A DNA stretch of 64,000 nt. Origin: Candidatus Bathyarchaeia archaeon (GTDB lineage: Archaea > Thermoproteota > Bathyarchaeia > 40CM-2-53-6). Under the pieces are notes generated by a model. The model did no database searches and was not told where the DNA came from. It was given only the letters and a program-made list of their open reading frames with translations. Position 1 is the first letter of the stretch, and the number at the start of each line of letters is the position of its first letter. The stretch is taken from contig JBEKFP010000002.1 of assembly GCA_050013255.1 (NCBI GenBank), positions 288,001 to 352,000 of the forward strand, given 5' to 3'. The translations under genes and the position numbers were made by a program. This document shows, piece by piece, positions 16,969 through 19,323 of this stretch.

Positions 16969-19186
16969 CTAGGCTTCCATGAAGTCTTCTGCCTTCTGCG
17001 GTTCGGGGGGTAGGCCTTTACGTTCGCGAATGCCGGTGATGATTTGGTTTAGTAGGGAATTCGGGACGGGTGCCCAACGGGAAAACTCCAATCCCCAGAA
17101 TGCCCGCCCTTGGGAAGCGCCGCGCATGACCTCTGAGAGGTCGAAGGTTTCCGCTGTTGGGAGTTCCCCAACCACGTAGACTAGGTGGCCGCGTTGGTCG
17201 ACTGAGAGGATTTTCCCGCGTTTCTGTGAGATTACACTCGTCGCGGCTCCTAGTAGTTCTGGTGGTACCTTCACCGTGATTTTTTGGACTGGTTCCAGTA
17301 GAACTGGGTTTGCGCTGAGGAATGCCACGAAGAACGCCCTTCTGCTCATTGGCATGATTTGGGCCGGTCCTCTGTGCACTGGGTCTTCGTGAAGTGAGAC
17401 ATCCGTGACCTTTACCCTGACCCCTCGAATCTGCTCATACGCGAGGGGGCCTTCTTTTATTCCCCAGCGGTAACCTGCAATAACCATTTCCTTGACCTCT
17501 TGGACGTATTGGGCCCCTTTCGTCACTTCCAAAAGCATGTTGCTTCCCTCGTCAACGCTCCACACCCCACGGGCTTCGTCAGCAGGCCATCCTTCTTCTC
17601 GAAGTACCTTGGCCATTTCATGTTTGTCCTGGTATTCCCCAATCTTGCCCTCCTTGATCATGTCGACGATTTTGTCGGGCAGGGGTTCAACTTCCAGGTA
17701 GATCTTGTTGTGCTTGTTAGGTGACTTGCCTTCCACAGGCCCGGCGGTGCCTCTGATGCTTTCGCGGTAAATCACGATTGGTTTGGAGGTTACTATTTCC
17801 AACCCGGTTTTCGTTATTAGCGTGTTCGCTATTTCCAAGTGCAGCGTGCCCATTCCGGCTATGAGGTACTCGCCGGTTTCTTCGTTGATCTTCGTCACGA
17901 GGTTCGGGTCTTCGAGGGTCAACCTTCGCAGTACTTCCACGAGTTTAGGAAGGTCCCTGCTGTATTTCGGTTCGACGGCCATCGTAACGACGGGTTCGGT
18001 GACATAGTGGACGGCTTCGAAGGGCGCGATGTCCTTTATCGTTGATAGTGTCTCGCCGGCCTTCGCAGCATCTAAGCCTAGAAGGGCGGGTATATTGCCT
18101 GCGCTTAATGTGCCCACGATTTCTCGGTATGGCCCCATGAAGATGCATACCTGCTGAACTCTCTGGTCAACTCTTGCTCCGAGTAAGTGGAATGTTGACG
18201 CTTCATGGATTGTTCCTGAGAATAGCCTGCCGCTGGCGACGACCCCAGCTTGCGGGTCAACAACAATGTTCGTGATCGCCATAACTACTGGGCCGTTGTC
18301 GTCGCAGTTCATCATGGCTTGGCCGACTTCGCTGTTTATGTCCCCCTTCCAAATCTTCGGAATCCGATACTTCTGTGCTACATGTGGCGGGGGCAGATGC
18401 TCCACTGCCATGTTGAGGATGGCTTCGTCAAGCGATGCTCGCTCTTTTAGTTCGCTTACCTTTTCGTTCAGGTAGGCGTCGACGACATCGGAGAATTTGA
18501 CATTCTTCTCCTTCGCGATTTCCGCGTTGAATCCCCATCGGTCCTTGGCGGAACCCATGGCCACAGTGTTCGATGCGAAGCTTACCTTCCATTTCTCACG
18601 GTACTCAGGTTCAGCGTAGAGCTCGATTAGGCGGTTGAACTCGGTGATTATGCGCCCGACTCTCTCTTGAATCTGCTCGGGCGACAACCTCAATTCTTTG
18701 ATGAGGCGGTCAATCTTGTTAATGTACAGCACAGGCCGCACACGTTCCTCAAGCGCCTGCCTCGTCACCGTCTCCGTCTGAACCATAATCTCCTCAACAG
18801 AATCCACAACTACAACCGCACCGTCAATCGCCCTAAGCGAGCGTGTGACTCTTCCAGAAAAGTCAACGTGGCCTGGTGTGTCGATTAGGTTAATGACGTA
18901 CGGTATCCCATTCCTTTCGTGTAACAGGCTTATGTTCGCAGCCTTAATGGTCATCTGGCGCTTTTGCTCTTCCTCCATGTAATCTAGGGCTAGCGCTGTC
19001 CCAGCCATGCCTGGTGACAGAAGACCAGCAGCTGCAAGGAGGGAGTCGCTCATCGTCGTTTTGCCGTGGTCGACGTGGGCAATGATTCCCATATCTTCCG
19101 GACGCAGAACTAGGCTACGTCATTCGGATTTGTTCCTTGTTAGCTATGATCCTCTGTATTTCCGTCGTAGATTTGTAACGGGGCAT
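16969..19186 (-). CDS. fusA: Elongation factor EF-2, two exons (19123-19186 and 16969-19094), 729 aa after splicing
   Basis: Exon 1 MPRYKSTTEIQRIIANKEQIR + N + MGIIAHVDHGKTT; DTPGHVDF, NKID, diphthamide site HEDPVHRG. Confidence 0.95.
19095..19122 (-). other. 28-nt BHB intron in EF-2 mRNA
   Basis: TCCG|AA^T|GACGTAG-CCTAGTT-CTGCGTC|CGGA|AG^A; removal restores frame and the conserved Asn. Confidence 0.9.
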
Positions 19187-19323
19187 TTTTTCTCAACTCT
19201 GCTCCGAAATCGAGAAGGCAACATGACTCAATATCATTAAAGCATTATGCTTGGTTCTGCCCAGTTTTCGGGGCACCCTTTTGCCCATCCAGTAACGGAG
19301 CACGGCTTACGTTTCTGGCGCTG

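Follow-up and report, generated by a model that had tools for sequence, protein, structure and literature searches.

The sole gene for archaeal elongation factor EF-2 (aEF-2) in the genome of this uncultured member of the Bathyarchaeia from peat lies on the minus strand of the window (the whole stretch of 64,000 nucleotides analysed here) and is split by a 28-nt insert, which is very probably a genuine, conserved bulge-helix-bulge (BHB) intron spliced out of the EF-2 pre-mRNA. We show the structure of the insert, its conservation and covariation in relatives, the genes for the splicing enzymes, DNA that bears the insert, and RNA from a same-genus relative in which the two exons are joined.

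From the ATG at 19186, a frame of 21 codons (MPRYK...EQIR) reads as a typical aEF-2 N-terminus; without splicing, this frame meets a TAG at 19117-19115, giving an ORF of only 23 aa (19115..19186). The long EF-2 ORF lies in a different frame, at 16969-19092, and encodes 707 aa from an ATG at 19092. Exon 2 alone scored 887.7 bits against TIGR00490 (cut-off 738.45; E = 5e-267), with a match restricted to profile positions 22-720 of 720, so that about 21 N-terminal positions are missing from it. As exon 2 is above the cut-off and exon 1 aligns to the N-termini of intron-less relatives, full-length membership in the aEF-2 family (TIGR00490) is met. The 2.46-Mb genome (three contigs, scored 100% complete) holds no other EF-2 copy, and neighbouring loci encode housekeeping proteins, namely a DEAD-box helicase, CDC48, FEN-1 and DNA ligase. 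The features of the locus are the following:

16969..19094, minus strand: aEF-2 exon 2 (last two bases of the Asn codon, 707 codons and stop; TIGR00490 match)
19095..19122, minus strand: BHB intron of 28 nt (sequence, fold and comparative data; in the RNA contigs an exon-1 end abuts 19094)
19123..19186, minus strand: aEF-2 exon 1 (start codon, 21 codons and base 1 of the Asn codon; aligns to the N-termini of intron-less relatives)
19125..19128, minus strand: central 4-bp helix, exon-1 strand TCCG (fold; covaries in relatives to TTCG/CGAA and CAGG/CCTG)
19097..19100, minus strand: central 4-bp helix, intron strand CGGA (fold and covariation)
19122..19124, minus strand: 5' bulge AAT, cut after 19123 (cleavage rule from PMC2738675)
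19094..19096, minus strand: 3' bulge AGA, cut after 19095 (read from the sequence; the loose end of the RNA contigs starts exactly at 19094)
19101..19121, minus strand: intron hairpin, a 7-bp stem (19121-19115 with 19107-19101) and a 7-nt loop (fold and covariation)
19115..19117, minus strand: in-frame TAG ending unspliced translation (ORF list)
19234..19242, minus strand: putative TATA-like box of the TTTAAT type, about 50 nt upstream of the exon-1 ATG (read by eye, conserved in the genus)

The minimum-free-energy fold of 19145-19080 contains the TCCG/CGGA helix, the 5' bulge AAT and the 7-bp stem. The two 3-nt bulges sit on opposite strands with the 4-bp helix between them, which meets the BHB criterion in the window. 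Only one junction yields R-N-M, with cuts after 19123 and after 19095, each of them being nucleotide 2 of its bulge. Excision of 19122-19095 (28 nt) gives ...QIR-N-MGIIAH and a protein of 21 + 1 + 707 = 729 aa, for which the predicted junction peptide is NMGIIAHVDHGK. The TATA-like box is consistent with a transcript that would include exon 1, although this remains an inference. An earlier note, made from the sequence alone, had claimed an out-of-frame upstream N-terminus, the fold with its bulges, the removal of 19095-19122 and the resulting R-N-M in 729 aa, and all of these held to the base; so did its claims that unspliced translation stops at a TAG after 23 codons and that the exon-side helix is weak, the outer helix not being formed in relatives. 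It had also expected gene callers to hide the intron, and indeed the public records list 706-707-aa proteins named 'elongation factor EF-2', every call in the cluster starting MGIIAH.

We asked how the insert behaves in relatives, taking EF-2 5' ends from 40 related genomes and 80 genome contigs; the organism belongs to Bathyarchaeia, and its relatives are MAGs from soil, peat and wetland. An insert of 25-54 nt was found at the identical codon boundary in 45 unique sequences. Under a strict rule that requires a 4-bp helix and 3-nt bulges and cuts after nucleotide 2, the reading frame and the conserved IRN-x-G sequence are regained in 45/45; one locus, L071, gives R-D-V-G and not R-N-V-G. In this Bathyarchaeia sequence (L071:1450-1511), shifting both cuts by one base would give the usual R-N-V-G; possibly either the residue differs there or the enzyme cuts the variant at other bonds.

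As the selection of the 45 unique sequences demanded a fully paired central helix, its 100% pairing follows from the selection, and the covariation is the informative part. When pairing was anchored on the splice sites, 92% of positions paired in register versus 24-47% with the partner strand slid by 1-3 nt, and stem positions switch among G-C, A-U, C-G and U-A across relatives. The central helix tracks the Arg codon (TCCG/CGGA, TTCG/CGAA), and where Arg is AGG it becomes CAGG/CCTG with the intron shifted by one base. An independent check with MAFFT and RNAalifold on 31 sequences recovered helix, bulge and stem alike, and 5/9 pairs had compensatory changes; such changes are seen in both helices, the central one and the intron stem. 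No outer helix forms between the exons, where pairing is limited to every other position and pairs 2, 4 and 6 are mostly mismatched. The canonical hBHBh' form, with flanking helices on both sides, is therefore not met, the inner stem being present and covarying and the outer helix absent; this places the motif in the relaxed class, which needs a broad-specificity enzyme.

An in-frame stop is found in 45/45 of the unique inserts (TAG in 38, TGA in 4, TAA in 3), including all 16 whose length is a multiple of three. Because of this conserved stop, unspliced RNA gives only a short peptide, of 23 aa in the window. It may be kept for structure or for halting unspliced translation, and our data do not distinguish these reasons. 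We also observed that the stop falls at the third codon after Arg in 41/45 unique sequences, within the stem (G-N-C-G-TAG). Exon 1 is conserved as a coding sequence, with diversities of 0.26, 0.20 and 0.51 at codon positions 1, 2 and 3, and its peptide corresponds to the N-termini of intron-less EF-2 homologues. Outside the genus of the window, most lineages have Ile or Phe (ATT, ATC, ATA, TTY) as the first complete codon of exon 2, so that no alternative start is available there.

On the DNA side, contigs of three peat or wetland runs, one of which is possibly the source of the assembly, span the insert without differences. A degenerate search pattern that would match the joined form gave 0 hits in JGI metagenome contigs, and the insert-bearing pattern with the same flanks gave 80 loci corresponding to 61 unique variants, all of them frame-restoring. 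On the RNA side, the peat metatranscriptome run X20 contains two contigs whose match to the window ends at 19094. They continue for 23 letters, the reverse complement of which is the exon-1 end of a same-genus relative (...GATCCGAA), with two differences from the window. The joint, CCGAA|ATATGGG, corresponds exactly to the predicted bonds, and no comparable loose end at 19094 was listed for the DNA runs. The RNA evidence is limited to two contigs, both assembled, of a relative that is 90-95% alike; it does not come from raw reads of the window's strain and gives no ratio of spliced to unspliced RNA. Spliced RNA alongside insert-bearing DNA is seen for the same-genus relative, and splicing in the strain of the window is inferred.

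These data bear on the checks proposed in the earlier note. RNA across the junction, which it had called for, is partly available, as the exact predicted joint is present in the two X20 contigs, from the same-genus relative only. The comparison of relatives that it had suggested revealed both the insert and compensatory changes, with the insert in 46/77 distinct EF-2 genes. Neither of two observations that it had named as refuting was made: DNA without the 28 nt was not found, since three DNA runs carry the insert, and the genome has no second intact EF-2 copy. Its claim of splicing of the EndA/RtcB type is supported by the covarying BHB, the enzyme genes, the insert-bearing DNA and the joined RNA contigs.

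We also looked for the splicing machinery. In the genome, two proteins of 190 and 187 aa are tRNA_int_endo paralogues, each containing the two Pfam domains, and their genes lie at L112 1213-1785 and L113 1204-1767. One is nearest to crenarchaeal catalytic subunits (3p1z_B, 2cv8_A, 2zyz_B), and the other is divergent and, as read from its sequence, appears to be without the catalytic His. The pair probably represents a two-subunit EndA of crenarchaeal type, although assembly into a heterotetramer is inferred from sequence; it is enzymes of this type that cut non-canonical motifs, cbf5 included (PMC5829648; PMC2738675). RtcB is also encoded (G000:C1:110968-113778; loci L114/L115) as one open frame of 1039 aa, whose match to the Pfam model comes in two pieces within the single frame, suggesting that it probably contains an intein. 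A broad-specificity EndA together with RtcB is therefore present at the level of gene content. In addition, the intron mode of Aragorn predicted introns in 25/30 tRNA genes, several very long ones being probably spurious.

A further protein-coding gene of the genome, cbf5, is split outside the window by a 19-nt BHB insert (G000:C2:595047-595065, minus strand; loci L116/L117) with helix CCCT/GGGG and bulges AGA and TAA. This insert sits at the codon of the crenarchaeal cbf5 intron, which the 2009 paper reported only for Desulfurococcales and Sulfolobales (PMC2738675). Separately, we observed an 18-nt in-frame insert with a TAA in the gene for the B12-binding subunit of an acyl-CoA mutase (G000:C2:407640-407657, plus strand), where it splits KPGL-D-GHDRG; its motif, as read from the sequence, is canonical, with an outer helix GCCCG/CGGGC, a central helix GGCT/GGCC and a 3-bp inner stem.

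In the mechanism that we propose, transcription would start upstream of exon 1. The 4-bp helix, with a 3-nt bulge on each side, would arise by pairing between the final codons of that exon and the intron's 3' end, the intron hairpin stacking alongside. The two-subunit EndA would then cleave after nucleotide 2 of each bulge, and RtcB would ligate the exons into CGA-AAT-ATG (R-N-M), giving the 729-aa EF-2 and releasing the 28-nt intron, probably as a circle. EndA and RtcB as the acting enzymes, the circular intron and splicing in the exact strain are all inferences.

Three other explanations could be proposed for this locus. The gene might not be spliced at all, in which case a 707-aa EF-2 truncated at its N-terminus would be made from the ATG at 19092, and the 23-codon frame would be a leader peptide or noise. 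This ATG is in frame, is conserved in the genus and is the start used by public annotation. However, most other insert-bearing lineages have no start codon there or nearby, the conservation of exon 1 is that of a coding sequence, intron-less relatives have the same N-terminal sequence in their EF-2, and the joined form is present in RNA contigs; we therefore consider a truncated EF-2 very unlikely. Alternatively, the ribosome might recode an unchanged RNA, either by a programmed frameshift or by bypass as in T4 gene 60. The stop codon and the hairpin just past the take-off point do resemble known bypass sites, but the length of the insert varies between 25 and 54 nt while the BHB geometry and the cut positions stay exact, matching take-off and landing codons are lacking, and the joined sequence exists as RNA, leaving recoding with very little plausibility.

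An assembly or sequencing artefact, or a decaying pseudogene, should also be considered, as frame disruptions in metagenome-assembled genomes are often errors. Against this, independent DNA runs agree base for base, the insert recurs in 46 of the 77 distinct EF-2 genes and in 80 metagenome contigs, and the gene is the sole EF-2 of a genome scored 100% complete, so that this explanation is all but ruled out. A spliced BHB intron remains our preferred reading.

To place the intron in a phylogenetic context, we used an EF-2 tree of Bathyarchaeia and deep Nitrososphaeria, on which the intron is present in 46/77 distinct EF-2 genes. In the order-level clade of the window, 34/37 EF-2 genes have the intron, and the three lacking it each branch alone inside the clade, which suggests losses. 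Two further clades of Bathyarchaeia have the intron as well, and it occurs in deep Nitrososphaeria; no instance was seen among the sampled ammonia oxidisers and the sampled Caldarchaeales. The tree requires 5-9 state changes for presence and absence of the intron, and the order of gains and losses is unsettled because the tree is a FastTree gene tree.

Fold stability showed no excess over shuffled sequence (z = -0.42), and a genome-wide BHB scan, of the kind that the earlier note had proposed, with the same geometry and frame restoration, gave 43 matches versus 47 for a decoy with 4-nt bulges, that is, no enrichment. A looser genome-wide BHB scan returned 7044 matches and was too permissive, and the scan with frame restoration also missed the cbf5 intron, whose stem has only 3 bp. 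Motif and frame restoration used as a filter cannot find mRNA introns unaided and add no support here; as the pattern alone is not above chance, the case rests on the comparative and RNA evidence. Rfam and ARAGORN gave no matches on the window. A regular-expression search for further genomic copies of the conserved flanks of the EF-2 intron returned chance matches only, and the best-looking one (C3 near 239824) was rejected since it lies inside an uninterrupted ORF.

Among known systems, the closest is the BHB intron in the pre-mRNA of cbf5, which encodes a pseudouridine synthase, in Desulfurococcales and Sulfolobales (Watanabe 2002; Yoshinari 2006; Yokobori 2009, PMC2738675). Both introns are short and intracoding, have a relaxed BHB cut between bulge nucleotides 2 and 3, are accompanied by a hetero-oligomeric EndA and are present in some lineages and lost in others. 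They differ in that the host of the present intron is a core translation GTPase, the intron falls at the R|N boundary, immediately ahead of the G1 motif, its carriers are Bathyarchaeia and deep Nitrososphaeria, and its splicing is without experimental assay. The BHB intron in the 5' UTR of HVO_1309 in Haloferax volcanii is likewise an mRNA substrate of the splicing endonuclease (Schwarz 2020, PMC7714728), shown in vivo and in vitro, and its excised form was found as a circle (PMC7714728). That intron is non-coding and its removal rebuilds no frame; for EF-2, splicing is inferred from the sequence together with contigs of a metatranscriptome. With the BHB introns of archaeal tRNA and rRNA, the EF-2 intron shares the motif, the cut rule and, by inference, the enzymes EndA and RtcB; unlike them, it lies in a message that is translated, codons limit what the exon strand of the helix can be, and there is no outer helix. 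In eukaryotes, HAC1/XBP1 splicing takes place in the cytoplasm through IRE1 and tRNA ligase or RtcB, as a regulated stress switch. This system also involves a short mRNA intron, a protein endonuclease acting at stem-loops, sealing by a ligase of tRNA splicing and a change of frame upon removal, but there the nuclease is IRE1 and not EndA, and no regulation is shown for EF-2.

According to Schwarz et al. 2020, cbf5 held the sole BHB intron reported in archaeal mRNA before their 5' UTR case (PMC7714728), and older work (2004-2006) had predicted introns in other genes of the rudivirus SIRV1 and of Sulfolobus (PMC2738675 among the sources). We found no report of a BHB intron in EF-2 in the literature searched, most subscription journals being outside its scope. 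EF-2 is thus, in all likelihood, the second kind of spliced protein-coding gene in Archaea after cbf5. The finding places an intron in an essential and universal translation factor, where it is widespread and has first support at the RNA level. It also means that public annotation systematically truncates EF-2, and where the internal ATG is absent, ATG-only calls would start past the GTP-binding loop. Moreover, the gene offers a testable system for asking why such introns persist, whether they couple the expression of an mRNA to tRNA-splicing capacity and how often split genes are missed.

A bolder reading, which we consider unlikely at present, is that the EF-2 intron is ancient and kept by selection, possibly predating the split of Bathyarchaeia and Nitrososphaeria, that with its universal in-frame stop it makes EF-2 output depend on EndA and RtcB in a HAC1/XBP1-like manner, and that it is perhaps one of many. 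The last part has its basis in the cbf5 and mutase inserts and in the EF-2 G1 region, which is struck at at least three sites in other lineages. If this reading were true, endonuclease-dependent mRNA splicing could belong to the normal course of gene expression in some archaeal phyla. Regulation through splicing, which the earlier note had also raised, is speculation: nothing observed speaks for it or against it.

In other lineages, BHB inserts interrupt this part of EF-2 at further positions, and the G1 region looks like a hot spot. One site lies between AH and V of the G1 motif, with a perfect 45-nt motif in L027 (about 251-295) and further inserts in L085 (about 1518-1553) and in L095, the latter having the R|N intron as well. 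Another site lies inside the Gly-Lys codons, with helix ACGG/CCGT in L090 (about 1465-1495) and a less regular form in L105. Some EF-2 genes (L017/L045, L030/L061 and L062) contain an intein after the P-loop Lys, giving frames of 1200-1320 aa, and this intein ends ...VVHN before TTMSD. Finally, EF-2 contigs of Bathyarchaeia were found in MAGs labelled as bacteria (Acidiferrales/Acidoferrum, Methylomirabilota or simply 'bacterium'; L036, L037, L041, L110 and HUK29375.1), which points to binning contamination.
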